A DNA stretch of 12,078 nt, taken from a virus. Positions 1 to 12,078 of this stretch are shown here, in pieces. The stretch is from UHGV virus genome UHGV-0261881; one strand, given 5' to 3'. Numbering within the stretch: position 1 is the stretch's first letter; every line of letters starts with the position of its first letter. The translations under genes were made by a program, and so were the position numbers. The notes under the pieces were generated by a model, which saw nothing but the letters and a program-made list of their open reading frames with translations, searched no databases and was not told where the DNA came from.

Positions 1-246
1 GCGGGTAGGTGTACCAAAAATAATGGCGTCGTAATCGGCCAGTTCTTGCGGGGTTGCAACCGGTGCAGTTTGCGTTTTACCGCCTGCTTTTTCAAATAAT
101 TGCGGCGGCATGGTTTCCGGTACACGCTTAACGACAACTTCTGCGCCATCCACTTTGCTTGCACCCTCAGCGACTGCGCGTGCCATCGTTTCAATATGTC
201 CGTACATGGAATAATAAAGCACTAGTATTCTTGCCTTAACACTCAT
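1..246 (-). CDS. wrbA: NAD(P)H:quinone oxidoreductase WrbA, N-terminal 82 codons (3' end runs off the window); first 8 codons supplied by the inserted element
   Basis: Minus-strand translation from ATG at 246-244 gives [82 protein letters not shown]. From VLYYSMYGH onward this matches the WrbA N-terminus as I recall it ([31 protein letters not shown]...). SD aggaga sits 8 nt upstream on the minus strand (plus 254-259). Confidence 0.92.
216..225. other. attL junction (host wrbA side | element side), crossover within or next to AAAGCAC
   Basis: Sequence ggaataatAAAGCAC|tagtattc: left part matches wrbA, right part does not. The same AAAGCAC is found at the right junction. Confidence 0.7.
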
Positions 247-297
247 ATCATTGTTCTCCTGTTCAATGAACCACTTAGATAAGCATAGTCCGAAGAT

Positions 298-1941
298 ATG
301 AAGCTGCTAGTGACATACATCAGGTGGAGTACTAAAGAGCAAGACTCAGGAGACTCCTTAAGACGGCAAACAAACCTCATTGATGCTTTCTACTCTAAGC
401 ACAAAAATGATTATTACCTTCTTCCTGCTCACAGATACGTTGATAAGGGTAAATCTGGTTTTCACCAGCAACATAAGAATCAAGGTTCTGACTTCAGACG
501 TATGTTTGAAAATGTTATGTCTGGGGCTATTCCAGAAGGTTCCTTGATTGTTGTAGAGAACTTTGACCGCTTCAGTAGGGCTGATATCGACACAGCTATA
601 GATGATGTCAGGCAGATACTGAGGAAAGGAGTCTCTATACTGACTCTGGGAGATGGTGAACTCTACGACAAATCAGCATTAACAGACCCTGTGAAGTTGA
701 TTAAGCACATCATCATAGCTGAGCGAGCACATCAGGAATCTCTTGTTAAACAAAAGCGTATAGCTCAGGTCTGGAACCATAAAACACAGCTTGCAAGAGA
801 ACTTAAGAAGCCTATGGGTAAGCAAGCCCCCGGATGGTTAGAGCTATCAGATGATGGTTCACACTACATCGTTGATGAAGATAAAGCGTCACTGGTGAAT
901 ATCATCTATGACAAGCGTCTTTCTGGTATGTCGATGTTTGCTATCTGCAAATGGCTAAACGAACAAGGTTACCCGACCATTAATCAGCGTAAGGTCAGAA
1001 TATCCAAGACTAAGAAACCTGATGGTAACTGGTCAGCATTAAGCGTTAAACACATCCTGACTTCACGAAGTGTATTAGGTTACCTTCCCGCTAAGATTTC
1101 TACAGAAGACCGTAAAACAGTGTTACGTGAAGAAATTGAAGGGTTCTATCCTCAGATTGTCACAGACTCTAAGTTTTACGCTGTACAGCAACTGTTAGAG
1201 GAAACAGGGAAGGGGAAAACATCCAGCGGTGAACACTGGCTATATGTGAACATACTGAAGGGGCTTATCCGTTGTAAGTGTGGGCTTGTAATGACTCCTA
1301 CAGGGATACGTAAACCCGTTTATCAAGGTACTTACCGTTGCAATGGTAATAAGGAGTCCCGTTGTAGCTACGGTACAGTGTCCAGAAAGTTACTTGATAC
1401 ACAGCTTTGTAGTCGTCTGTTTAGCAAACTGTCACAGCTACACGATGAAGCTACCGATACAGCTAAATTAGATGAACTGCAACGCAGACTAAACACCGTT
1501 GATAGTGAACTGGAAAAACTCACTGAGACGCTGATACAGCTTCCTAACATCACTCAGATTCAAGAAGCACTACGGGTTAAACAGGAAGAAAAAGATGAAC
1601 TGATAGTTCAGTTATCACGAGAAAAGGCGAGGGTAAAATCTGTATCAAGCTTGGATTTAAGCGGTCTTGATATGGAGTCTGTAGAGGGGAGAACTGAAGC
1701 CCAGATTATTATTAAGCGTTTGGTGAAAGAGATTGTTGTTTCTGGTAATGAAAAGCTGGTGGATATATATCTTCACAATGGAAATATGATTCGTGGTTTT
1801 CCTCTTGATGGTAAAGATGACCACACCTTAACGCTTGAAGAAGCAACCGATGAGATGCAGTCATTAGATGATATGCTTATTTTTGGTGAACCAGTAACAA
1901 GGATTTATCCTGCTGGTGATATGGAAGAGGTGGACGCTTAG
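298..1941 (+). CDS. Large serine recombinase (integrase), 547 aa
   Basis: N-terminal catalytic motifs YIRWSTKEQ (catalytic Ser), [15 protein letters not shown] and ERAHQESL. Cys-rich stretch IRCKCG...[14 protein letters not shown] consistent with a recombinase zinc ribbon. Coiled-coil-like C-terminal region ([21 protein letters not shown]). ATG start at 298. Position next to the att junction. Confidence 0.88.
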
Positions 1942-1944
1942 GAA

Positions 1945-1960
1945 TTGGTATTGTTACCAA
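1945..1960. terminator. Hairpin between convergent genes (TTGGTA-ttgt-TACCAA), possible bidirectional terminator without a clear U-tract
   Basis: Perfect 6-bp inverted repeat with a 4-nt loop, exactly filling the gap between the integrase stop (1939-1941) and the minus-strand gene stop (1961-1963). Confidence 0.3.
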
Positions 1961-2734
1961 TCAATAAGTGCCCTTCTTATTCGGATTCACACTAAATTTC
2001 CGTAAAGCATTACCCGACTTAAGCACTTTTGAAGCCTGCTCATTAGCTGAGGCTGTGAAGGTGCTTACACCATCTTTCACCGTGACATTTTTAGAGCAAT
2101 TGCTACGGACCCTTAGCGCTTCATCAGATAGCTCAGATGCTGAGTAGCTATACAGTTCCTGACACATCAACATAGGTGCGTTATTGCGTTCAGTAGTCAC
2201 GTTACCCGCATTCTTCTTAGAAGTTGCGCCACCATCATTTGTGGTAGCGGCCTTTCCAGTTGCAGCAGAGATATCAGTCTGACCAACAACAGCTTTAAAG
2301 TTAATTTCCTGAAAAGTTAGCTGGATTCTTAGACCATTTGAAATACCAACATCTTTAGATGCTTTAAAGCTTGTAATAATGGAATCATCAATTTTAATTC
2401 CGTCCTTACAGATAACAGAAATAATTTGCTTCTGGTCACGCCAGCTTTCAAGAGTGTCAATGAAGTTTTCTACTAATTGACCCTGACGAGTTAATAATAA
2501 GCTTCCTTCATAGCCAACTACAACGACACCACTAATAGTGATTGTTCTGGGTGCTCTTTGCACATTATCTGTGACGGTTTGCCCTGATTGCATGTTCTGT
2601 GTAGTCACCTGCATAGGGCTATCAAATTCCATGTTTTCAGTTGCTGATAAGGTTAAGAAGGCATCTACATTGTCTCTTAAGTGGAAATAGATGCCATCTT
2701 TGCCACTGTAACGAATCTGATTAGAGTAAATCAT
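1961..2734 (-). CDS. Hypothetical protein, 257 aa; weak resemblance to a phage distal-tail/structural protein given its position after the tape-measure-like gene
   Basis: Long ORF. The track's TTG start at 2755 is replaced here by the ATG at 2734-2732, which has a strong SD (aaggag, 7 nt upstream on the minus strand). Beta-rich-looking sequence ([15 protein letters not shown]). No catalytic motif recognised. Confidence 0.6.
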
Positions 2735-2813
2735 TAAATTCTCCTTTGATTTCAAAGGCTTAGTGTATTTTAATCATTTTTAACCAAGCCTTTGATATAT
2801 AAGTATTTTCTCT

Positions 2814-2895
2814 GTTAAGCGTGAGCTACGTAAATTCTATTTTTCAGTGCAGGTATTAACTTTGCTTTATTCACGTAGCATTCGACTATTCATAG
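2814..2895 (-). promoter_or_regulatory. Promoter-like cassette, copy A, upstream of the 257-aa gene
   Basis: About 37 bp nearly identical to copy B (taagcgtgagctacgtaaattctatttttcagtg). On the minus strand it reads ...ctgaaaaaTAGAATttacgtagc..., a -10-like TAGAAT with no good -35. Dyad arms GCTACGTAAAT (2825-2835) and ATTCACGTAGC (2869-2879) flank and overlap the -10. Confidence 0.45.
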
Positions 2896-2968
2896 TTGAA
2901 TCGTCATACTAGATAAAGATTAATAGATTGCCATGTGTGGCAATAAATATTAGTAGTTCTAACATTGT

Positions 2969-5044
2969 TTATTCCTCTGGGTAAGCTGAGCTAATCAAGG
3001 TATCTTCCTGCATACGATTAATATGCGATGTGGTTCTTTCATCAATAACCTTTCCATCAAGTACCGTCTGAGTTGTGATATTGATTGTCTGAGGCTGAAT
3101 GTTTACTGACGGCTTGATAACCTTTAAATCTTGTGTGAATGTTTCCACTCGACCTTTCAGATTATTTAATGCTTCAGGTGAAAACTGTGGAACATCTTTT
3201 GATTTGCCCTGAACCATAGCCCATAAAACAGCGGCTAAAGAGTTCATGTCACCAGACAATGCTTGGTCTGTAGGTTCCACCTTTGACCTTACAACTTTGT
3301 CAATTGGATTATCTGACTTACTCATCTGACGTTCATAGAACGGTTTAACAATGGAGTTAATCACATCAGTTGCCATACCGACAATCATTACTTTGGTAAT
3401 TGCATCAGCTACAGATAATTTTCCTTTACCACCTTCAACACTACCGGAACGTGAATTAATTCTTCCTGCTGCTGTATTTGCTACATTTCCAAGCGTGGAA
3501 ATAGCCCTAATTAAGCTCCAGATGCCACCTACAGCACCAATACCAGACCTTACAGCAACAATACCAGCAAGTCCCTTTAATGCACTTAACAGGCCATTTG
3601 CGATACCATCAGCTACAGCTTTTTGAGTGTCATTTAATTCTCTGTAAGCAAGGGTCACTCTGTCAAAGAATCCCTGCACTCGGTAGCTAATCGTGGTTAA
3701 ATCATCAATACCGTTTGACATACTTTTCATCAAGTCGCCAAAATGTTCACCAAGATTTTTAGATTGCCCACCTAGCGAATTAAGTAAATTAGTCAGTGAC
3801 CTTGTAAAGTCTGTTAAACCTTCCTGTGAACCGTCGAACATTAAGGCCAGATTATTATTCCATGAATTAGAAAGGCGGCCTAACTGCGTCTGAGTAGAGT
3901 TAATAATCTTTTCCCATCCACCAGCTTTATCAATCATCCTTCCCATTTCAGCGGATACTTTAGGAAGAACATCTTTAGAAAGAACTTTACCGTCTTTCAT
4001 AGCCTTGTCTAATTCTTCTGTAGTCATCCCAAGGCTTCTGGCAAATAACTGGAAAGCACCTGCCATTCTGTCACCTAATTGACCACGTAGCTCTTCAGCC
4101 TGAATCTTCCCTTTAGAAGCCATCTGCTCGAAAGCTTTCAGAATCCCGTTAATTTCATCAGTACTTAAACCCATTAATCTGGATGTGCCAATCACATTAC
4201 TAAATAAGGATTCTTTCTGGCCTGCATCCATATCACCAGCACCAGCGGAAAACTTAGCAAAACTGCTTAATGTTTCAATCTGGTCAACACCAGTATTATT
4301 AGCAAGATTCTTAACAAATTCTGTAGCTCGTTTAGCACCTTCATCACCTAAAACGAATTGTGCCGCTCGTTGTGATGCTTCTTTTTTCAGACCAACCTCC
4401 ATAATCTTCCTGTAAGCTTCTAAGGCTGTCTGAAAACTATAAATGGCTGTACCTGCTTTGATTGCACTTGTAGCTAATACATCCAGACCATTCGAAGCAT
4501 TTTCACTGTGATTATTTTTGCTGGTGGTCTTGTTAAACTTAGAAAGTGTTTCACGAAGAGACTGATTTAATTTTGCTAACTCACGATTAAAAGCTTCGTT
4601 TCCAAGTGTCTTGGATTTACTACTTAATGCGTAAAACTGACTCTTAATGTATTTCTCGACAATTGGGTTAAGACCTTTCAGCTTGCTCATATTCGCTGAA
4701 TAAGCTGCTGTGATTGCTCTGTTTCCGCTAATTCGTGGTTGCCTTGATTGTTTTGGAGGATTAACAGTGTCATTAAATCTGGTGGCAAACTGAAATGCTT
4801 TTGTGCTTCTTGCTCTCTGTTCAATCTTGTCAAAGGTCTTATTAAACTTCCTTTCAAGCTGCCCTAAAGAACTTGTCAGATTGCTGTCAAGTTGCTTGGT
4901 ATCGACCTTAAACGCTCTATTCAAATTGCGTTCAATTCTTTGTGCTGACTGCAAAGCTGCCTTTTCAACTCTTTGCAAGCCCTTAATAACGTTTTCACTG
5001 AAACTAAGTTCAACGATAAAACTATCAACTGTGAATTTGCTCAT
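2969..5044 (-). CDS. Tape-measure-like protein (phage tail length tape measure domain), 691 aa
   Basis: Central block GLSTDEINGILKAFEQMASKGKIQAEELRGQLGDRMAGAFQLFARSLGMTTEELDKAMKDGKV resembles the tape-measure core domain. Gly/Ala-rich hydrophobic segment (GLLSALKGLAGIVAVRSGIGAVGGIWSLIRAISTLG) and coiled-coil-like N-terminus are typical of tape measure proteins. ATG start with SD agaggtg. Confidence 0.65.
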   Translation of the reverse strand: MSKFTVDSFIVELSFSENVIKGLQRVEKAALQSAQRIERNLNRAFKVDTKQLDSNLTSSLGQLERKFNKTFDKIEQRARSTKAFQFATRFNDTVNPPKQSRQPRISGNRAITAAYSANMSKLKGLNPIVEKYIKSQFYALSSKSKTLGNEAFNRELAKLNQSLRETLSKFNKTTSKNNHSENASNGLDVLATSAIKAGTAIYSFQTALEAYRKIMEVGLKKEASQRAAQFVLGDEGAKRATEFVKNLANNTGVDQIETLSSFAKFSAGAGDMDAGQKESLFSNVIGTSRLMGLSTDEINGILKAFEQMASKGKIQAEELRGQLGDRMAGAFQLFARSLGMTTEELDKAMKDGKVLSKDVLPKVSAEMGRMIDKAGGWEKIINSTQTQLGRLSNSWNNNLALMFDGSQEGLTDFTRSLTNLLNSLGGQSKNLGEHFGDLMKSMSNGIDDLTTISYRVQGFFDRVTLAYRELNDTQKAVADGIANGLLSALKGLAGIVAVRSGIGAVGGIWSLIRAISTLGNVANTAAGRINSRSGSVEGGKGKLSVADAITKVMIVGMATDVINSIVKPFYERQMSKSDNPIDKVVRSKVEPTDQALSGDMNSLAAVLWAMVQGKSKDVPQFSPEALNNLKGRVETFTQDLKVIKPSVNIQPQTINITTQTVLDGKVIDERTTSHINRMQEDTLISSAYPEE

Positions 5045-5057
5045 TCATGTTTCACCT

Positions 5058-5140
5058 CTTTAAGCGTGAGCTACGTAAATTCTATTTTTCAGTGTGGATA
5101 TTAGCTTTACAGATTTCATGTAGCACACATAGGATTCGAT
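5058..5140 (-). promoter_or_regulatory. Promoter-like cassette, copy B, immediately upstream of the tape-measure-like gene
   Basis: Same core as copy A. -10-like TAGAAT on the minus strand (plus 5079-5084) sits about 35 nt upstream of the ATG at 5044. Lies between an intrinsic terminator (5160-5201) and the gene start. Confidence 0.5.
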
Positions 5141-5159
5141 AGAAGACTATCTCATATAC

Positions 5160-5201
5160 AAAAAAGGGAGAAACTACCGATATCACTCGATAATCTCTCC
5201 C
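5160..5201 (-). terminator. Rho-independent terminator after the 67-aa gene
   Basis: Minus strand reads GGGAGAgattatcgagtgatatcggtagttTCTCCC followed by TTTTTT: 6-bp GC-rich stem plus U-tract, about 25 nt downstream of the stop at 5227. Confidence 0.6.
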
Positions 5202-5226
5202 GTTGATTTTCACCCAACCAATCTTT

Positions 5227-5430
5227 TTACCTAACCAGATAATAATTACCATCTTCACCGACAATCTGACAATCACTTGGTAATTTATCAAGACACCATT
5301 TAGCGATTCTTCTGATTCTGTTATTTTGCTTAGAGGTGGATGATTTGATTCGTTTTGGTTTGTTGGGTTGTTCTTTCAGTCGTTCACTAATTGCCTTGAT
5401 GAGTTCATAGCGTTCTGTTAAATCAATCAT
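5227..5430 (-). CDS. Hypothetical small basic protein, 67 aa
   Basis: ATG start with a strong SD (aaggaggtg). N-terminus MIDLTERYEL is paralogous to the upstream 102-aa protein (MSDLTERDKR). Confidence 0.55.
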   Translation of the reverse strand: MIDLTERYELIKAISERLKEQPNKPKRIKSSTSKQNNRIRRIAKWCLDKLPSDCQIVGEDGNYYLVR

Positions 5431-5455
5431 TCACCACCTCCTTTTTAATTCGATT

Positions 5456-5764
5456 TTAATCTAAGTAGTGTATACACTCGACACCGCGTTCATTCTTTTG
5501 AATTTCATAACGTAGTGAAAGACCAGTTTGATAATACACAGTATCAAGCTTATTTATCTTATCCTTGAGTTCGATAAGAAGTCGCGTTAAATCATCCCGA
5601 CCATCACACTTTAGTTCGGCAAGAGGCTTTTCTTCCATACGACCAATAAGATATTCAGTGACCTCCTGAATATCACCAAGAGTCATTTTAATTTCATTGA
5701 ACCTATCTTCAAAAGGCTCCATCACCCATTTCATTCTTTTATCGCGTTCTGTTAAATCACTCAT
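5456..5764 (-). CDS. Hypothetical small acidic protein, 102 aa
   Basis: ATG start. Its start overlaps the stop region of the upstream 234-aa gene (5764 versus 5773), suggesting translational coupling. Shares the M-x-DLTER N-terminus with the 67-aa protein. Confidence 0.6.
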   Translation of the reverse strand: MSDLTERDKRMKWVMEPFEDRFNEIKMTLGDIQEVTEYLIGRMEEKPLAELKCDGRDDLTRLLIELKDKINKLDTVYYQTGLSLRYEIQKNERGVECIHYLD

Positions 5765-5772
5765 TATTCACC

Positions 5773-6477
5773 TCAAACAGCCTTGCTAAATTCTCGTGGA
5801 ACACTCAGAAAATCATTGAAGCTGATAATCTGTGCCAACTCTTGACGGTACTCCTTAGCCAGCGCTTGATGGTCACTAATCAGCTTAGCCAGTCTTGATT
5901 TCAGCAATTTAATCTCATTTTCTCTTGCTTTCATCAGTTTCTCTTTGGCAATTTCTTCAAGCTCAGCTTGTGATTTATCAGCAACAATTAGAGACAGTTG
6001 ATGTGGCGCTCTGATGGCCCTTTCCGTACGAATAACCCTTTGACCTTCTGGTAAATCTGCAATCACTTTACCAATCTCTACAGGGTCATACCCCCAACCG
6101 TCACGGTCTAGTCGAGAGAAATAAGCATAAGGATTGGTTTGAAGCTCCATCAAAATAGCCATTTCGTCGATTTCGTCTTCAAGCTTGGACTGAATTTTCT
6201 CGTAAACACTTCTCATTGCTTCTTGAGAGTCTTTAATAGCTTGGAAATATCGGCGTTGCAGCTTCAGTTTCAAATCAAGCTCACATTTCTCATTCATCGA
6301 AAAATCAATTTCAACTCTTGGAATCTCGAGTGGTTCTGGTGGAATATATGGACCTTTATTTACTTCGTGTGATTCCCGCCAAGCTCTATCAAAAGATTCA
6401 CGCAAAGTTAATTCGTGAATATCAAGTGCACTTGGTCTGTTCTCAACAATCATTTCATTTTCATCACGGATAGCCAT
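5773..6477 (-). CDS. Hypothetical protein, 234 aa, charged and coiled-coil-rich
   Basis: Long ORF with ATG start. Its SD (agaagagga) lies inside the 3' arm of an 11-bp hairpin. No motif recognised. Confidence 0.6.
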   Translation of the reverse strand: MAIRDENEMIVENRPSALDIHELTLRESFDRAWRESHEVNKGPYIPPEPLEIPRVEIDFSMNEKCELDLKLKLQRRYFQAIKDSQEAMRSVYEKIQSKLEDEIDEMAILMELQTNPYAYFSRLDRDGWGYDPVEIGKVIADLPEGQRVIRTERAIRAPHQLSLIVADKSQAELEEIAKEKLMKARENEIKLLKSRLAKLISDHQALAKEYRQELAQIISFNDFLSVPREFSKAV

Positions 6478-6487
6478 TAATATTTTT

Positions 6488-6556
6488 CCTCTTCTAAGAT
6501 AATTTACGTTTCAGTTTTTAAAAAGCACACCTGACAACCTACGAACTTAGAAGAGG
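6488..6556 (-). promoter_or_regulatory. 5'-UTR hairpin sequestering the SD of the 234-aa gene
   Basis: Perfect 11-bp inverted repeat CCTCTTCTAAG (6488-6498) / CTTAGAAGAGG (6546-6556) with a 47-nt loop. On the minus-strand mRNA the 3' arm contains the SD, 10 nt before the ATG. Confidence 0.5.
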
Positions 6557-6594
6557 CTTAAAAGGCGTTTGCCAAGTATGCTTTTTAAAAGCTG

Positions 6595-6631
6595 AAAAAA
6601 GCCCTAGATAACTAAAACGCTATAAAGGGCT
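6595..6631 (-). terminator. Rho-independent terminator ending the upstream minus-strand operon
   Basis: Minus strand reads AGCCCTttatagcgttttagttatctAGGGCT followed by TTTTT(T). Confidence 0.5.
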
Positions 6632-6949
6632 AAGGTGAAGAAATTAAAACATCTAAAGGATTCAATAACGAATGAACAAGAGTACTTTTCGAGATGACCT
6701 CTCAGGTTATATAAGAGGTCATGTAGCGAAAAGCATTGCACCTTTCCAAATCAGAATATCCATCCATCGGATTATTGAAAATATGATTTTAGGAAGAGTT
6801 GCTCTTCCCTATAATTAAAATTATGTCATACTTAAGGTTATTTGTCAACAGCCTTTTAACAGATTGGTAACATCAATTTCTATTTACTGTGTTGCCTACC
6901 CAGCAACCAACAAATAAGCCAAGCAACGTCCAAGCAATTATTAAGCCCA

Positions 6950-7279
6950 TTAGTGAACCCTCACAGAATCCGTAACCAAAATATTGTCGCTGTACAGGAT
7001 TGTCACAGCACCTTTCAAAAATTGCTCTGGGGAAATACTGTATTTGTTCGTTTGCTCGATAACCAATCTTTTCATGTTGCTGTCTTTAATTGGTAGCATC
7101 ATTCGAGGCTCGTTAAACTCCACCGACTGAATAAAGTCAGAGATGCTTTCCGCATTATCAGTCATTAACTCTAACAACTTATCAAAGTCAACGCTAACAC
7201 CTACATCAGCGAAAGCCTGAATCATCATGGCGGTGTCGGTATCAATAAAAATCTGTAGTGGGAAGTTTAATTCTCTCAT
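6950..7279 (-). CDS. Hypothetical protein, 109 aa
   Basis: ATG start with SD aaggag. Lies immediately downstream (minus strand) of structured repeat copy 1. Confidence 0.55.
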   Translation of the reverse strand: MRELNFPLQIFIDTDTAMMIQAFADVGVSVDFDKLLELMTDNAESISDFIQSVEFNEPRMMLPIKDSNMKRLVIEQTNKYSISPEQFLKGAVTILYSDNILVTDSVRVH

Positions 7280-7304
7280 TTCTTAAAATCTCCTTTTTAC
7301 CAGA

Positions 7305-7430
7305 CCTCCTCAATCGCTCTGTAACGAGCTAAACAGTCTTTTTCAGGGGTAGCCTGTACAGTGGTATTACCCACCCTAAAATAAGGTAGTTTTTTGCGTT
7401 AGAATGCGATTGAGAGCGTCTGAGAAGCTG
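7305..7430 (+). repeat. Structured inverted-terminus repeat (SIR), copy 1, between the HNH-like gene and the 109-aa gene
   Basis: Aligns base-for-base in the same order with copy 2 (same orientation) and with the reverse complement of copy 3. Shared blocks GCTCTGTAACGAG, CAGGGGTAG, TACCCACCCTAAAATAA, GTTAGAATGCG and AGAGCGTCTGAGAAGCT. Termini are mutually complementary (CTCAATCGC / GCGATTGAG). Confidence 0.75.
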
Positions 7431-7435
7431 TTTTT

Positions 7436-7723
7436 CTAATTTCTCTTAAAGTCTCGGACTTGCATAAGATTTTTTGGTCTGGTATCGGCTCTGTTACCAT
7501 TTCGATGGATAATTTGCTTGTTGGATTGATAGCCATGATAAAGGAACCAGACAACATATTTCACGTAGAAAGTATATCGGCCTATATTAAATGTTTTGTT
7601 GCCGTAGTCGTCGGTATTTATCGTGACTGACTCTCCATCAGACCAGCACAGGGAATCACTGGATTCATCATAGATAAGGTGTTCTGTAAAATATCGTCTA
7701 ACATCTTCATGCCAAGGTTTCAT
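7436..7723 (-). CDS. Small HNH-family endonuclease-like protein, 95 aa
   Basis: C-terminal YVKYVVWFLYHGYQSNKQIIHRNGNRADTRPKNLMQV resembles the HNH motif of phage-type HNH nucleases (consensus-like ...W..hnG...IDHINGN..DNR..NLR). ATG start overlaps the upstream gene by 4 nt. Confidence 0.55.
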   Translation of the reverse strand: MKPWHEDVRRYFTEHLIYDESSDSLCWSDGESVTINTDDYGNKTFNIGRYTFYVKYVVWFLYHGYQSNKQIIHRNGNRADTRPKNLMQVRDFKRN

Positions 7724-7935
7724 AAAACCTCCTCACCCCAATAACCTAATTCAATCTTGTGACGCTCAAACCATTCCGGTTTAACTGCTGTTTTCAGTAC
7801 TTCATTTGGGTCAATGGCTTTAATGAAAATATCTTTTGAGTTATGGATGTCACCGAATCCGTTTCCTTTAATCAGGAGGTCGGAGATGTAGCGAATCATT
7901 TTATCTGTGTGGTATTCAAAGGTAACGCATAGCAT
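7720..7935 (-). CDS. Hypothetical protein, 71 aa
   Basis: ATG start overlapping the upstream stop (TAATG). Part of a tightly coupled operon. Confidence 0.5.
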   Translation of the reverse strand: MLCVTFEYHTDKMIRYISDLLIKGNGFGDIHNSKDIFIKAIDPNEVLKTAVKPEWFERHKIELGYWGEEVL

Positions 7936-8213
7936 TAAACCTCCATCGCTAACTTGTGAATCTTAAGACTCAATAGACGGGCAATATCAATTTTAAAGCC
8001 GTTAAGTGCCTTCAAAGTATCTAAAGCGTCCTGACTAATTCGGATGTGCTTACGACCTTTAGAGACTGGATATTTAAGTAAATCCGACTCAGTGACCTCT
8101 TTAGCAATTGCAAGTTGCATAATAGTTTGATGAGGTAAGTTAGTTGCTTGTTTAATTCTGGTAAGCTCGTTAAAAGCTTCCTCTGAAATACGGGTTAATG
8201 TGTGTTTATTCAT
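7935..8213 (-). CDS. Putative ribbon-helix-helix (RHH)-like DNA-binding protein, 92 aa
   Basis: N-terminus KHTLTRISEEAFNELTRIKQATNLPHQTIMQLAIAKE fits a strand-helix-helix pattern like CopG/Arc-type RHH. A second similar pattern (HIRISQDALDTLKALNGFKIDIARLL) follows. Stop of the upstream gene directly abuts its ATG. Confidence 0.4.
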   Translation of the reverse strand: MNKHTLTRISEEAFNELTRIKQATNLPHQTIMQLAIAKEVTESDLLKYPVSKGRKHIRISQDALDTLKALNGFKIDIARLLSLKIHKLAMEV

Positions 8214-8768
8214 TTAAAATTCCTCTGTAACTAAATACGGGTCAAACTCGAAATCTGGTTCACTAATCGTAAGGCTGATATTGCCCACTTCCGCATGATG
8301 ATTAATTGTCTCAATAACTTTCATGCAAATAGTGGCTAAGTTAGCGCAATATTTATCGCTTGGTAATTCATAGCTAAGTCTGGTTGCTTGTCTTTGAAGA
8401 TGGCTCGTCACTGTGCTTGAGCTAATCTTATCAAGGCTTCGAAGCAAATAGAAAATCTTCCGGTGATAGTTATCCCTTCCAAAGCTGCGACAAGTGCCGA
8501 TAATTACATCTTCAATTCGTGATGGTAGTTGCTCGTAAGAATCAAAGCCCATCAAGAAAGTTTTTAAAGTATTTTCTTTTTCTTTGCGTGTTGGCATATA
8601 TCTGTCTCGTGGCGTAATGCTACGAATGACCGCTTCAATGTTCTTACGTTCGGATTTGCTAAAGGTTGGGACTTCGTAGCTGGTGGGGGTGTCTGTGTAG
8701 CTGTAACCGTTGCTTCTGTTTCTTGCTTTGCTCTCTTCAAGAAACTTTTGAAAATCTTTGTCGTTCAT
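8214..8768 (-). CDS. Hypothetical protein, 184 aa, first gene of the operon
   Basis: ATG start 43 nt downstream of a consensus-like promoter. No motif recognised. Confidence 0.6.
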   Translation of the reverse strand: MNDKDFQKFLEESKARNRSNGYSYTDTPTSYEVPTFSKSERKNIEAVIRSITPRDRYMPTRKEKENTLKTFLMGFDSYEQLPSRIEDVIIGTCRSFGRDNYHRKIFYLLRSLDKISSSTVTSHLQRQATRLSYELPSDKYCANLATICMKVIETINHHAEVGNISLTISEPDFEFDPYLVTEEF

Positions 8769-8817
8769 TCATAAGCTGGCCCTTATAATTGTTAATTTCC
8801 TGTTAACTATATATACA

Positions 8818-8846
8818 ATCTTAGCAGTTTCAAAGGCTAATGTCAA
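8818..8846 (-). promoter_or_regulatory. Sigma70-type promoter of the minus-strand four-gene operon
   Basis: Minus strand reads TTGACA (plus 8846-8841), a 17-nt spacer, then TAAGAT (plus 8823-8818). Confidence 0.6.
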
Positions 8847-8854
8847 GCATTTTT

Positions 8855-8884
8855 TTAACATTTGATTAACATTTATGGTATAAT
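8855..8884 (+). promoter_or_regulatory. Extended -10 promoter firing rightward into the ORF-poor region
   Basis: TTAACA (8855-8860), 18-nt spacer, TGgTATAAT (8876-8884). Divergent from the operon promoter. Confidence 0.55.
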
Positions 8885-8917
8885 GGTTTTATGAGAGAGG
8901 GAAAATATAAAGGCGTG

Positions 8918-8975
8918 GCTATGAGGTTTATTCGATAAACCGAATCAACTATGAGAATGGTCACATGGTTATTGC
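8918..8975 (+). repeat. Direct repeat Rep2, copy A (contains cgaatcaactatgag)
   Basis: Homologous to 10493-10592 in the same orientation (ctatgagRtt ... cgaatcaactatgag ... aatggttatt). Confidence 0.6.
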
Positions 8976-8986
8976 ATTGCACACAG

Positions 8987-9082
8987 GCCTCTTCAATCGC
9001 TCTGTAACGAGTTAAATGGCCTCTTCAGGTCAACTCATAAGGTCAGGTACTTTTTGTATCAGAATGCGATTGAGAGCGTCTT
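8987..9082 (+). repeat. Structured repeat (SIR), copy 2 (shorter), forming the leader of a small ORF
   Basis: Shares the 5' block cttcaatcGCTCTGTAACGAG and 3' block AGAATGCGATTGAGAGCGTCT with copy 1. The central part differs. Terminal 8-bp complementarity TCAATCGC / GCGATTGA. Confidence 0.7.
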
Positions 9083-9095
9083 ACAAGGAAAACTA

Positions 9096-9272
9096 ATGGT
9101 AAACCTCCCTCCTGAGCTGGGGTCACCTGATGTTTGGGCTGGTGGAGGTGTGGGTCTGATTGCAGGCCTGCTACTTCGCTACGTCCTCGTCAGAGTGCTT
9201 GTTGTCTTTAAACTGTTCGGTCGTACATGGACGCTTGACCTTAAGGATAATGACCACACAGACCCCCGTTAA
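9096..9272 (+). CDS. Putative small membrane protein, 58 aa
   Basis: ATG at 9096 with SD aagga 7 nt upstream. Translation MVNLPPELGSPDVWAGGGVGLIAGLLLRYVLVRVLVVFKLFGRTWTLDLKDNDHTDPR has one hydrophobic helix and a charged tail. Weak hairpin (CCCCT/AGGGG, 9286-9309) downstream. Confidence 0.35.
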   Translation: MVNLPPELGSPDVWAGGGVGLIAGLLLRYVLVRVLVVFKLFGRTWTLDLKDNDHTDPR

Positions 9273-9391
9273 ACCCCCTTCAAAACCCCTATACCATCTC
9301 GTACAGGGGTATCTTTAGCATTTTGTGCTATCTATTAAAAAATAGCTTGACAGAACCGGAAAGCTGTATTTATCAAGTATTCACCTCTCTG

Positions 9392-9564
9392 ACAGTGATT
9401 TCTAAAAATACTTATTTTTCAATGAGTTGTAATCACCCATATATAGAGAACTGACAAGTCTCTTCACAGAGAACTCTGTAACCTTAACAGTAATTTCTAA
9501 AAATACTTATTTTTCAATGAGTTGTAATCACCCAATATATAAGGCTGTCCAGTACCTTCACAGA
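9392..9564 (+). repeat. Tandem direct repeat, two units of ~80 bp with a 95-bp period
   Basis: Units 9392-9470 and 9487-9564 share a ~55-bp near-identical core (acagtRatttctaaaaatacttatttttcaatgagttgtaatcacccatatata) and a downstream cttcacaga. A GCTCTGTAAC-like motif lies between the units (9474-9482). Confidence 0.7.
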
Positions 9565-10375
9565 TGACTTCAAGCCTTCTTAGCTATCCACTAAGCGGGA
9601 GAAGAGCGATAACCCCAGAGAGGGAAGCTCCCTTCTAATTGGTATTGTTATGAGGATGCTTCATCCGAATCATCTACCAATCCCTAAACCGACTCTCTTA
9701 ACCAGCCCTTTACGTTATTCGTTCACAGTGTTGATAAGTGGTTTTGCCCTCTGTTTCTGTTATCATCGGGCTTACCTTATCAGGGCTTTGAAATGCCCTG
9801 TAACTCCCCTCTTAACGGGAGAGAAAGAACATAGTGACCCCAAGCGAAGCGCCCCTCTAAAAAGATTTTTTAGCTACTTTGTTTAAAAGCACATCAAACG
9901 ATACATTTTATTGATTTAGGTCAAAGACAAAAGCATTGACAAAATGGTAAGATTGTTCACATGACCTTACTTAACAGATTCTTAAGAGCTTTGAAACGGC
10001 CTATTTAACAAGGTCACTACCTACGGTTCTTCGTTTTCCTTCTTTCTAGGTAGTCATCTGTTAAGAGTTTTTCAGTCTTACTCTTAAGAATCACTGTTAA
10101 GATGATACTCTCCCCTTCGGGTTATATCGTATCTCTTCTCCCGTTAAACACCCCTTCCTAACTATCTACATAATCACTTCTAAGAATCTTACAAGGTAAT
10201 ATCCAGACCTCTTATAGTTGACCTGATACAGAAGTTTTACAGGCATACTCTCTAGGTTACTAATCGGGTGCTATCAAGGGCCACTAAACGAGAGAGGGGA
10301 TATGTGACCATAGGGGAACCCCTCCTGTTAAAAAGGCCACTTAGAAGTCTGAGACTTTAGTAAAATCTGTGAATA

Positions 10376-10492
10376 TAGCTTCTCAGGCGCTCTGTAACGC
10401 ATTCTAAGCGATTTTACCCCTTTATTTTAAGGTGGGTGGTACATCCCTATAGACTACCCCTAAAAATGGGGTTAAAACTCGCTACAGAGCTT
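10376..10492 (-). repeat. Structured repeat (SIR), copy 3, inverted relative to copies 1 and 2
   Basis: The reverse complement of 10371-10500 aligns along its length with copy 1 (blocks GCTCTGTAGCGAG, AGGGGTAG, TACCACCCACCTTAAAATAA, GCTTAGAATGCG, AGAGCGCCTGAGAAGCT). Termini are complementary (GCTCTGTAGCG / CGTTACAGAGC). Confidence 0.7.
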
Positions 10493-10592
10493 TCTATGAG
10501 ATTAGCTTCATGAAGTAATTCATTACTGAATCACCTAATCGAATCAACTATGAGGCTTGGTAAGATTGTGCAAAATCTGTACAATGGTTATT
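10493..10592 (+). repeat. Direct repeat Rep2, copy B
   Basis: See Rep2 copy A. Here it abuts SIR copy 3. Confidence 0.55.
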
Positions 10593-10850
10593 TGGCTTCT
10601 GAAAATTTTTACAAAAATCATAGTAGCCCTCTTTGAATCTCATCTTCCCCGAATCTTCAAAAATATCTGACAGATGTCTGTAGCTGCTAAGTACCCGTCA
10701 CACCAGCTATGTGACCCCCTTTGCAAAAAAGCCAAATATCTATTGACTTTCTATGTGAATTGCTATAAAGGCATCTATCTAGACCTTTAACTGTATAAAT
10801 ACACATGACAACAAACGCCCGTTAAGTGTCTATATAAAAAGGTAGCTGTA

Positions 10851-10895
10851 GCTATAGACAACAATTGTGATAATTGATTTAATGGCTATAGACAA
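10851..10895 (+). promoter_or_regulatory. Two direct GCTATAGACAA repeats upstream of the small recombinase gene (candidate operator or binding sites)
   Basis: Identical 11-mers at 10851-10861 and 10885-10895 (34-bp spacing). Related TATATAG-like motifs at 10828-10836 and 10914-10922. Confidence 0.4.
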
Positions 10896-10935
10896 GCAAG
10901 ACAGACCTTTGTTGACTATATAGAGAGATAAGAAC

Positions 10936-11505
10936 ATGCGTACATTCCTTTATGCTCGTGTATCAGTTGATGACCTCACCACACAAAACCAAGTAGAAGC
11001 TGTTAAACGTGCTGGTTATGAAGTCAAACCTTCACGAGTGATTGAGGAAGTTATTAGTGGTGCTACACCAGCTATGGACAGACCACAATTTGTAAAGCTG
11101 GTGGATAAGCTGGAAGAAGGTGATTGTCTTGTAGTGACCAAGATTGACCGCTTAGGAAGGGATAACATTGATGTACAGAAGACCGTCACAATGTTACTGG
11201 ATATGGGTGTGAAGCTAATTTGTTTAGACCTGCCTGTAAAAGACCTTTCAAGTGCTGAAGGTAAACTTATCCTTCAACTATTCAGTACCTTTGCAGAGTT
11301 TGAACTTAACCGCATCAGAGAGCGAACCAGAGAGGGCTTAGAACGAGCTAAAGCACAAGGTAAGGTGTTGGGTCGTCCTGTAGCTAAAAACACTACAGAG
11401 GCCGTTTTAGAGCATAAGGCAAAGGGATTGTCACAAAGTCAGGTTGCAAAGCTTCTGAATCTCTCTGTGAGAACGGTTAGCCGTCACTGGACAAAGACAC
11501 TGTAA
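10936..11505 (+). CDS. Small serine recombinase (resolvase/invertase family), 189 aa
   Basis: Motifs YARVS (catalytic Ser), VVTKIDRLGRD and ERTREGLERAKAQGKVLGRP, plus a C-terminal helix-turn-helix (GLSQSQVAKLLNLSVRTVSRH). ATG start. Confidence 0.88.
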   Translation: MRTFLYARVSVDDLTTQNQVEAVKRAGYEVKPSRVIEEVISGATPAMDRPQFVKLVDKLEEGDCLVVTKIDRLGRDNIDVQKTVTMLLDMGVKLICLDLPVKDLSSAEGKLILQLFSTFAEFELNRIRERTREGLERAKAQGKVLGRPVAKNTTEAVLEHKAKGLSQSQVAKLLNLSVRTVSRHWTKTL

Positions 11506-11526
11506 GAAACTTAGTAGCATCTTCAT

Positions 11527-11550
11527 AGCCTCCTTCATGGGGGCTTTTTT
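11527..11550 (+). terminator. Rho-independent terminator after the small recombinase gene
   Basis: AGCCTCC-ttcat-GGGGGCT stem (one G-U pair) followed by TTTTTT, about 22 nt after the stop. Confidence 0.6.
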
Positions 11551-11558
11551 GTATCCAC

Positions 11559-11626
11559 TCTCTAAGCGTGTCCTACGCAAAATCTCCTGAACACTTACCC
11601 ACCCTCAGAAATAACTTTCACGTAAG
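11559..11626. repeat. Diverged third copy of the promoter-like cassette (copy C), containing a TTACCCACCCT block shared with the SIR repeats
   Basis: ctctaagcgtgtcctacgcaaaatctc resembles the cassette A/B core. The loop contains ttacccaccctcagaaataa, similar to TACCCACCCTAAAATAA in SIR copy 1. 3' arm ctttcacgtaag. Confidence 0.45.
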
Positions 11627-11937
11627 AAACTGTTAAGCAGCTTGATAGTTATTCTGTGTGACCAAACATCTATATATCGTTATATAGTCCTGTATATAGC
11701 ACTTTTCTAGGAGTCGAGAGAGGGACGACTAACACGATACAGTTTACCCTGAAAAGAGACTTCACAGATTCTCTATATATTTCAATAAGTTAGGCTAAAA
11801 AGAGACTATACCGATACTGCATAGAATCTGTGTAAAACTGCTTAGATACTTGGGAAAATGCCTTTAAATTGAATAGGGATTCACCTGATATTGTCCTGTT
11901 ATTAACAGGTAGTTGAATGTACGTGTTTAGCTATGTA

Positions 11938-11947
11938 AAAGCACCAG
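11938..11947. other. attR junction (element side | host wrbA side)
   Basis: Sequence ctatgtaaAAAGCAC|cagaactttagccat: the right part is the reverse complement of the native wrbA start ATGGCTAAAGTTCTGGTGC. Confidence 0.7.
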
Positions 11948-12078
11948 AACTTTAGCCATTTCTAACCACTCCTCGTGTTATCTCTATTCCGTAGCGATTC
12001 GCTACCACTTATTTAAAGATAAGACGTCCTTTTCAGAGTGCAAATTTCACAACCACTTATTTGATTTATAACAACTTT
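11945..12078 (-). other. wrbA: Displaced native wrbA start codon (11959-11957), first codons, SD and native upstream region
   Basis: Minus strand reads gaggagtggttagaaATGGCTAAAGTTCTGGTGC..., giving MAKVLV, the native WrbA N-terminus. It is separated from the rest of wrbA (1-222) by the element. Confidence 0.8.

Follow-up and report, generated by a model that had tools for sequence, protein, structure and literature searches.

A conserved 95-bp tandem repeat in the control region of an Escherichia coli element related to Felix O1-like phages, and its possible role in helper-dependent packaging or replication

The stretch of DNA analysed here (12,078 nt of the UHGV virus genome UHGV-0261881, below called the window) contains an 11.7-kb element (216-11944) integrated in wrbA by a large serine recombinase. 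The outer parts of the window, 1-215 and 11938-12078, belong to E. coli wrbA; as an empty site, these flanks are matched in 5418 of 5426 complete genomes. The crossover core of the att sites, AAAGCAC, occurs at 216-222 and 11938-11944. The large serine recombinase gene (298-1941, plus strand) is followed by a minus-strand block (1961-8768) that encodes a Dit-like baseplate protein, a tape measure protein, an HNH endonuclease and proteins without an assigned role. Further to the right lie an ORF for a 58-residue membrane protein (9096-9272), an ORF-free control region of 1.6 kb with the repeats considered below (9290-10935), a small serine recombinase gene of the resolvase/invertase type (10936-11505), and a non-coding right end of 430 bp. 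About 20% of the element is non-coding. Relatives of the element are located in yecE, between tonB and yciI, and in mdtG, and the integrases are only 28-37% identical. The family members covered were L001-L005, L008-L011, L035, L070 and L072.

The control region is preceded by a divergent promoter region (8806-9310). A strong rightward sigma-70 match, TTAACA-N18-TATAAT with a TG, is found at 8855-8884 upstream of the 58-residue hydrophobic ORF, which is the best conserved part of this region. The region ends with a terminator hairpin (9281-9310), the orientation of which in the window and in L002, L008, L019 and L052 is the reverse of that in most relatives. A long hairpin element of about 115-145 nt is present in three copies (7295-7432, 8978-9092 and, inverted, 10345-10490), one of them adjacent to the HNH endonuclease gene and another within the 5' leader of the small ORF. 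Its outer stem is formed by CTCAATCGCTCTGTAACG and the complement of this sequence, and the folding z-scores range from -3.1 to -4.3. A scan of the whole window against Rfam produced only a chance microRNA-like match at 6499-6612, and none in the repeat.

The earlier note described a two-unit tandem repeat in the control region, and this repeat is real. It consists of two 95-bp plus-strand units, 9387-9481 and 9482-9576, arranged head to tail. A repeat search finds the segments 9392-9439 and 9487-9534 as a 48-nt direct repeat with 98% identity at a spacing of 95 nt. The unit tails, 9441-9475 and 9535-9569, are 71% identical and contain CTTCACAGA at 9462 and 9556. When the full units are aligned globally, 77 of the 97 columns are identical. 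Tandem Repeats Finder gave no entry for this two-copy array. With an HMM constructed from 96 distinct units, the two units of the window score E 1e-29 and 4e-28.

The first half of unit 1 consists of the head box CTGACAG, the block TTCTAAAA, an A/T-rich tract and an IHF-like 13-mer (TTTCAATGAGTTG, 9417-9429). The second half contains GTTGTAATCACCC, an (AT)n run, CTGACAAG, CTTCACAG and an inverted GTTACAGAG. Unit 2 has the same order of blocks, with the head box CTTAACAG and the IHF-like 13-mer at 9512-9524. Short boxes lie between and after the cores. Four of them, about 11 bp apart, occupy 9451-9490 between the two cores: CTGACAAG at 9451, CTTCACAG at 9462, the inverted GTTACAGAG at 9471-9479, and CTTAACAG at 9483. 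A second run, 9545-9574, follows core 2 and includes CTGTCCAG at 9545, CTTCACAG at 9556 and ACTTCAAG at 9567.

Directly upstream of unit 1 there is a leader block (9318-9386, plus strand), which is the most conserved non-coding block of the family, with 93-96% column identity. It holds CTTGACAG at 9346 and TATCAAGTATTCA at 9371-9383, the latter with one mismatch to the IHF consensus. The leader may be a degenerate third unit or a promoter/operator.

The motif search in related elements proposed in the earlier note found the repeats to be kept in 64 related loci. In the HMM census, a pair of units is found in 48 of these loci, a single unit in 15 and a triplet in one. Two tandem units are also present in a Citrobacter portucalensis element and in a Salmonella-type element. 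The non-coding region is matched in 569 of the 5426 complete E. coli genomes (about 10%) and is never annotated. A pattern of 23 nt from the core was found in E. albertii among species-representative genomes, in four IMG/VR contigs and in 50 metagenome contigs. No units were observed in L004 and L005, where the left regulatory module is different or absent and the right end is the same. Given this, and given that the unit number varies from one to three, the units are not indispensable for every member of the family.

In the alignment of 96 distinct unit copies approximately 60 of 95 positions are strongly conserved. The invariant or nearly invariant blocks are T[GA]ACAGT, TTCTAAAA, CTTATTTTTCAA, AGTTGTAAT, CC, ATATA, CTG..AG and CTTCACAG. 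The (AT)n run between the core and the tail varies by 1-6 nt, and the first and last units retain position-specific tails. Downstream of the units, in the segment equivalent to 9625-9705, the loci L049, L013, L010, L045 and L030 have one to four tandem copies of the 13-nt sequence CTTCTTAACCGAC. A 26-nt hairpin insertion, TAGTTGGGCTTGTATAACACAACCCC, occurs in some loci and is missing from others.

The units do not encode a protein, as every one of the six frames is interrupted by stop codons in each of the 49 loci that have two or more units. They were also rejected as structured RNAs: the fold z-scores of the two units are -0.69 and 0.55, no covariation was observed among the 96 units, and no Rfam match was found at E up to 1. 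A hairpin formed by GTGATT and AATCAC initially looked attractive, as a few of its pairs seemed compensatory. However, the alleles combine freely in the 96-unit alignment, and the folding is no better than that of shuffled sequences. For the 420 nt downstream of the units no pairs were predicted in a consensus RNA structure; here the relatives are mosaic.

The variable number of units raises the possibility that function resides in one unit only, the other copy being a neutral product of slippage. Indeed, alleles such as TCACCC and TTAGCC are shuffled between the unit positions, which suggests frequent unequal exchange. However, two copies are kept in three quarters of the 64 loci and across genera, and the specific tails of the first and last units are preserved. 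This explanation is thus unlikely, and the same holds for its variant in which the units encode a structured small RNA, given the z-scores, the lack of covariation in GTGATT/AATCAC and the lack of Rfam matches.

The centre of each unit conforms to an IHF-type bending site, TCAA-N4-TTG behind an A/T-rich tract, and binding of IHF at this site is predicted from the sequence. The consensus WATCARNNNNTTR is matched with at most one mismatch by 97 of 98 units. Its positions 3-6 (TCAA) and 11-13 (TTG) are invariant across units, as is the G at position 10, whereas positions 7 and 8 vary freely, position 9 varies rarely, and some variation occurs at positions 1-2; T stands in place of A at position 2 in 95 of 97 units. 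The 15 nt upstream of the core are on average 81% A+T. Two divergent Citrobacter units have a perfect IHF consensus despite altered flanks. The relaxed pattern WWTCAANNNNTTR has seven matches in the window, including both units and a fragment near attR, compared with 2.55 expected, and three of 200 shuffles reach seven. On the other hand, the IHF consensus is short and degenerate and positions outside it are also invariant, so the real reader of this site may be another protein.

The related fragment that the earlier note placed near the right att site does exist, although it is mainly an inverted unit tail and differs from the original description. It occupies 11739-11792 in the conserved right end and combines the inverted tail, a CTTCACAG box and the IHF-like 13-mer TTTCAATAAGTTA. 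The third-best match of the unit HMM in the window is on the minus strand at 11778-11739, a 40-nt inverted tail with E 0.068, and a match in the direct orientation at 11749-11769 has E 0.96. Taken alone, with these E-values, the fragment is of borderline significance. It contains an exact CTTCACAGA at 11760, where the CTTCACAG box also lies, and TTTCAATAAGTTA in the direct orientation at 11780-11792, which resembles the centre of the unit core. The block around the fragment is nearly invariant across 41 distinct related loci.

This right-end block (11660-11912) is the same in these loci whatever the type of integrase. It contains direct repeats CT(G/A)AAAAGAGACT that enclose the IHF-like site at a distance of 46 nt from each other, as well as an inverted repeat of 10 bp, CACAGATTCT/AGAATCTGTG. 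The palindrome CCTGTTATTAACAGG (11895-11909) closes the block just inside the integrase-specific att arm. A 22-nt hairpin insertion, GGGGTTGGAACAAGCCCAAC, is present in the right end of some loci and absent from others. BLAST of 11600-11940 against 50,697 phage records, with E up to 10, returned only noise.

The position of the crossover is fixed by a related element, L035 (ERZ506742 NODE-633), which is 88% identical. This metagenome contig of 11,233 nt has a 55-nt terminal overlap and thus represents a circle of 11,178 bp, in which the right end is joined to the integrase gene via an attP with the core AAAGCAC. This is direct evidence that a related element exists in an excised or concatemeric form. 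The junction places the crossover of the family at 216-222 and 11938-11944 and demonstrates that the family excises. Consequently, the fragment is some 150 bp inward of attR, and 2.4 kb separate the tandem repeat from the crossover. The units were therefore rejected as a part of the att site of the large recombinase. It is also very unlikely that the large integrase or its excision factor uses the units as arm-type accessory sites. The fragment is indeed close to attR, and it shares motifs with the units. However, the attP of the circular contig needs only the last 35 nt or so, and the same units and right end occur with integrases that are only 28-37% identical and in four other target loci. 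Besides, large serine integrases use att sites of about 50 bp and function without arm sites, and their directionality factors bind the integrase protein.

The other recombinase of the element is also a poor candidate. It could be supposed that the units are recombination or accessory sites of the res, hix or gix type for the small serine recombinase, and that the fragment near attR is their inverted partner at the other end of an invertible 2.3-kb segment. The small recombinase matches PHROG 125, DNA invertase, with E 6e-55; its gene is flanked by an inverted repeat of 30 nt with 73% complementarity (9451-9480 and 11738-11767), and unit 1 contains a small dyad, ACAGAG-AA-CTCTGT. However, this dyad is not conserved, other units having ACAGTTAACTCTGC or ACAGATGACTTCAA in its place. 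Among 44 complete loci with the repeats the small recombinase gene is absent from 20, and it is on the minus strand in 14 and on the plus strand in 10. Its alleles are unrelated, with no nucleotide similarity, and thus the gene is variable cargo. All 58 loci compared are collinear, and no inverted segment was observed in any of them, so an invertible segment was rejected. Since the gene is lacking in 20 of 44 loci and no inversion occurs, the units are not sites of the small recombinase, contrary to the binder named in the earlier note; of the readings considered, this one is the least probable.

The gene lies in a variable cargo slot (10740-11631) between conserved non-coding blocks. The slot may contain a small serine recombinase gene of either of two unrelated allele groups and on either strand, a gene for a DNA N6-adenine methyltransferase (L001) or for an AP2-domain protein (L002), or nothing recognisable.

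The most informative context of the repeat, which was absent from the earlier note, is its link to helper phages. The 264-residue Dit-like baseplate protein of the element is 75% identical to a protein of Felixounavirus EC106 that is encoded beside the tape measure gene. The tape measure protein of the element and that of EC106 have 29% identity over the full length. Both genomes lack GATC: there are no occurrences in the element (42 expected) and none in the 87.8-kb genome of EC106 (309 expected). The survey covered the window (1-12078), EC106 (L068 and L069), L001-L005, L070 and L072. GATC is absent from L001, L004 and L005. L002 and L003 do have GATC sites, all of them within inserted IS elements apart from one in L002; in general, the GATC sites of the relatives, this one aside, are confined to host flanks or inserted IS elements. 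Avoidance in both suggests that the same selective agent acts on them, such as a GATC-directed nuclease or pressure related to Dam or MutH.

Felixounaviruses package their DNA with direct terminal repeats, for instance of 581 bp in Pr103Blw (PMC8303462, PMC11737134). In agreement with this, the record of NBEco005 has an identical 651-bp sequence at both ends. Two segments of the control region align with this terminus. The segment 9629-9709 is 86.6% identical to a sequence inside the 651-bp repeat of NBEco005 (E 5e-18). Within it, a hairpin-forming stretch of 51 nt (9636-9686) is 100% identical to NBEco004 and also lies inside the NBEco005 repeat. Further downstream, 10588-10752 aligns across the boundary between the terminal repeat and the unique sequence of NBEco005 (62.7% identity, 169 nt, E 3e-7). 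Here the counterpart of the phage junction GGGTTACC/AAGCAG is 10684-10696, read on the opposite strand. Judging by this alignment, the stretch is a candidate site for terminase cutting or recognition in the element.

The 9636-9686 sequence is carried by only about 10-25% of related elements, and some have a short version, TTGGTATTGTTACCAA. Its copies or pieces are found at other module junctions, in L002 at 16899-16950 and, inverted, in L004 at 14984-14933. A 66-nt direct repeat with 85% identity (2815-2880 and 5060-5125) is located immediately upstream of the minus-strand genes of the Dit-like and tape measure proteins. It carries TTTACGTAGC, similar to the TTTACGTAAC repeats beside the helper terminal repeat, and these copies may be helper-dependent promoters.

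From the protein homologues, the absence of GATC and the matches to the terminus, the element looks like a satellite of virulent Felix O1-like phages, or a derivative of them, with parts of the helper terminus copied in its non-coding region. Similarity to the terminus is seen in the non-coding region around the units, and the units themselves have only box-level similarity to the helper and one weak match of 35 nt. The latter is between the run 9545-9574 and the array ATACATAGGCTTTACAGAGTCTTAACAGATGACT of the helper terminal repeat (77% identity, E 0.07). BLAST of the repeat region (9330-9600) against the 50,697 phage records, with E up to 10, returned only noise, and the best match of the unit HMM in the complete EC106 genome, outside the terminal region, has E 0.15. 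Thus no phage counterpart of the 55-bp unit core was found in these searches, and no IHF-like site was found in the terminal region of EC106.

The box-level similarity concerns the octamer CTTNACAG. It occurs nine times in the 2,081 nt of non-coding DNA, with 0.37 expected, and none of 1000 shuffles reaches nine. Boxes of this type flank the IHF-type consensus at a spacing of about 11 bp. EC106 has 64 genomic copies of CTTNACAG, of which 13 fall within the 1.74-kb terminal non-coding region, and 12 of these 13 share a strand. In NBEco005 the terminal repeat has five copies of CTTNACAG and 12 of TTAACAR.

The main competing explanation sees in the units weak sigma-70 promoters in tandem, which may include operators for a regulator encoded by the element. 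From them, transcription would run rightward into the non-coding region and the cargo gene, at a level tuned by the duplication. The units lie directly downstream of the terminator of the small ORF. Each unit of the window has CTGACA or TTAACA, a spacer of 18 nt and TATTTT, that is, nine of 12 matches; a -35-like CTGACA, TTAACA or CTAACA is present in 92 of 96 units and TATTTT in 88 of 96. A second layout, TTCAAT-N16-18-TATA(AT/TA/AA/GA), yields a perfect TATAAT in 21 units, the conserved leader contains TTGACA-N18-TATCAA, and the early promoters of the helper are sigma-70-like. However, an 18-nt spacer with a -10 hexamer matching at four of six positions makes a poor promoter, as does the loss of the T at -7, which most TATA-run variants of the second layout lack. 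The promoter scan lends no statistical support, since 8700-12078 contains nine promoter-like sites compared with 8.0 +/- 2.8 expected from shuffles. The conservation extends well past both hexamers, for example to TTCTAAAA, GTTGTAATCACCC and CTTCACAG. The hexamers, which the Escherichia units conserve, are degraded in unit 1 of Citrobacter: TATTTT is changed to TTAAAA and TTCAAT to ATCAAC, whereas the IHF-type consensus improves. Finally, there is no terminator or conserved RNA structure downstream of the units, and in L001 a convergent methyltransferase gene lies 200 nt downstream. On balance, we consider the promoter explanation possible but rather doubtful.

The explanation that we prefer, with a probability of roughly 0.4, is that the 95-bp unit is a cis-acting module for the assembly of a nucleoprotein complex in helper-dependent packaging and/or replication. 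The element would be a satellite-like parasite of virulent Felix O1-like phages, with a 1.6-kb non-coding region that copies the terminus of the helper genome. A box-binding protein, provided by the helper or possibly by the element, would load onto the repeat, and the IHF-type bend would bring the clusters of boxes together. The resulting complex would mark the DNA of the element for helper-dependent packaging and/or replication, and the inverted partial copy near attR might serve as a second docking point for the same proteins. The conservation of the units, their non-coding nature, the enrichment of motifs, the independence of the small recombinase and the kinship with the helper terminal region are supported directly; the identity of the box-binding protein and the process served by the units we infer from these sequences.

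The general idea of the earlier note, that the repeats are protein-binding arrays, agrees with the non-coding, unfolded and conserved character of the units and with their short boxes; the binders that it named fare worse. Of these, a replication initiator may be the binder, although no initiator-like gene was found in the element. Neither a replication initiator nor a small terminase subunit is recognisable among its genes, and the structure model of a neighbouring 184-residue protein was uninformative. No DnaA boxes are conserved near the units; exact matches to TTWTNCACA occur only elsewhere, at 10567 and 11829.

Similar arrangements are known in several systems. In phage lambda, the R sites of cosB, which bind terminase, flank the IHF site I1, and the packaging protein assembles on bent DNA. 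The units likewise have short boxes on both sides of a predicted IHF bend, and the region around them also mimics the helper terminus. However, the two share no sequence relationship, the helper does not belong to the cos phages, and no small terminase subunit was identified. The iteron origins of SaPI/PICI satellites and of plasmids such as pSC101 and R6K combine direct repeats with an adjacent A/T-rich tract and an IHF site, here IHF-like, and such modules are swapped between relatives together with adjacent regulatory genes, as in L004 and L011 compared with the window. Unlike these origins, which have four to seven short iterons, the element has one to three long units of 95 bp with an internal A/T tract, and neither a cognate initiator gene nor a conserved DnaA box was found. 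As no initiator gene is recognisable, the units cannot be assigned to the iteron origins and may be said only to work like them. The arrays in and beside the terminal repeats of Felixounavirus share with the units the octamer family CTTNACAG/TTAACAR, the spacing of about 11 bp and the bias to one strand, but lack the 55-bp core.

Together with lambda cosB, the non-coding region of the Vibrio cholerae satellite PLE is the closest functional analogue. In this region the RepA iterons constitute the origin, and a neighbouring stretch copies a part of the pac site of ICP1 (PMC7145576; 10.1101/2024.04.22.590561). Like PLE, the element is linked to a virulent myovirus as a satellite, integrates by a large serine recombinase and has a long ORF-free region with several types of repeats. 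Unlike PLE, it has no recognisable RepA_N or other initiator, and it has no homology to PLE at the sequence or protein level. Its units are 95 bp long with an IHF-like core, in contrast to the semi-palindromic iterons of PLE of about 30 bp. The helper uses direct terminal repeats and not pac/headful packaging, and the element has tail genes, of which PLE has none.

The repeat is a new sequence family within a known class, the protein-binding repeats of satellite control regions. We tentatively suggest, as somewhat less probable than not, that it is a part of a packaging and/or replication cis-signal of an undescribed family of satellites of virulent Felix O1-like phages. A literature search found no described E. 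coli or Felix O1 satellite family of this kind, and, to our knowledge, satellites of virulent phages are known mainly from Vibrio (PLE, PICMI). If the suggestion is true, satellites hijack a direct-terminal-repeat helper by copying its terminal region, the elements escape whatever selects against GATC in the helper, and the architecture of an IHF-type site with boxes is a handle by which helper proteins recognise satellite DNA.

The repeat is of value chiefly because it leads to a family of Escherichia elements, linked to virulent Felix O1-like phages, that is common and apparently undescribed. These phages are in use for typing and therapy, and an abundant Escherichia counterpart of the Vibrio satellites would bear on the prediction of phage therapy outcomes. 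It would also inform how a helper with direct terminal repeats recognises its satellites, and a candidate for this recognition step is the tandem repeat, which is small, well defined and open to deletion.
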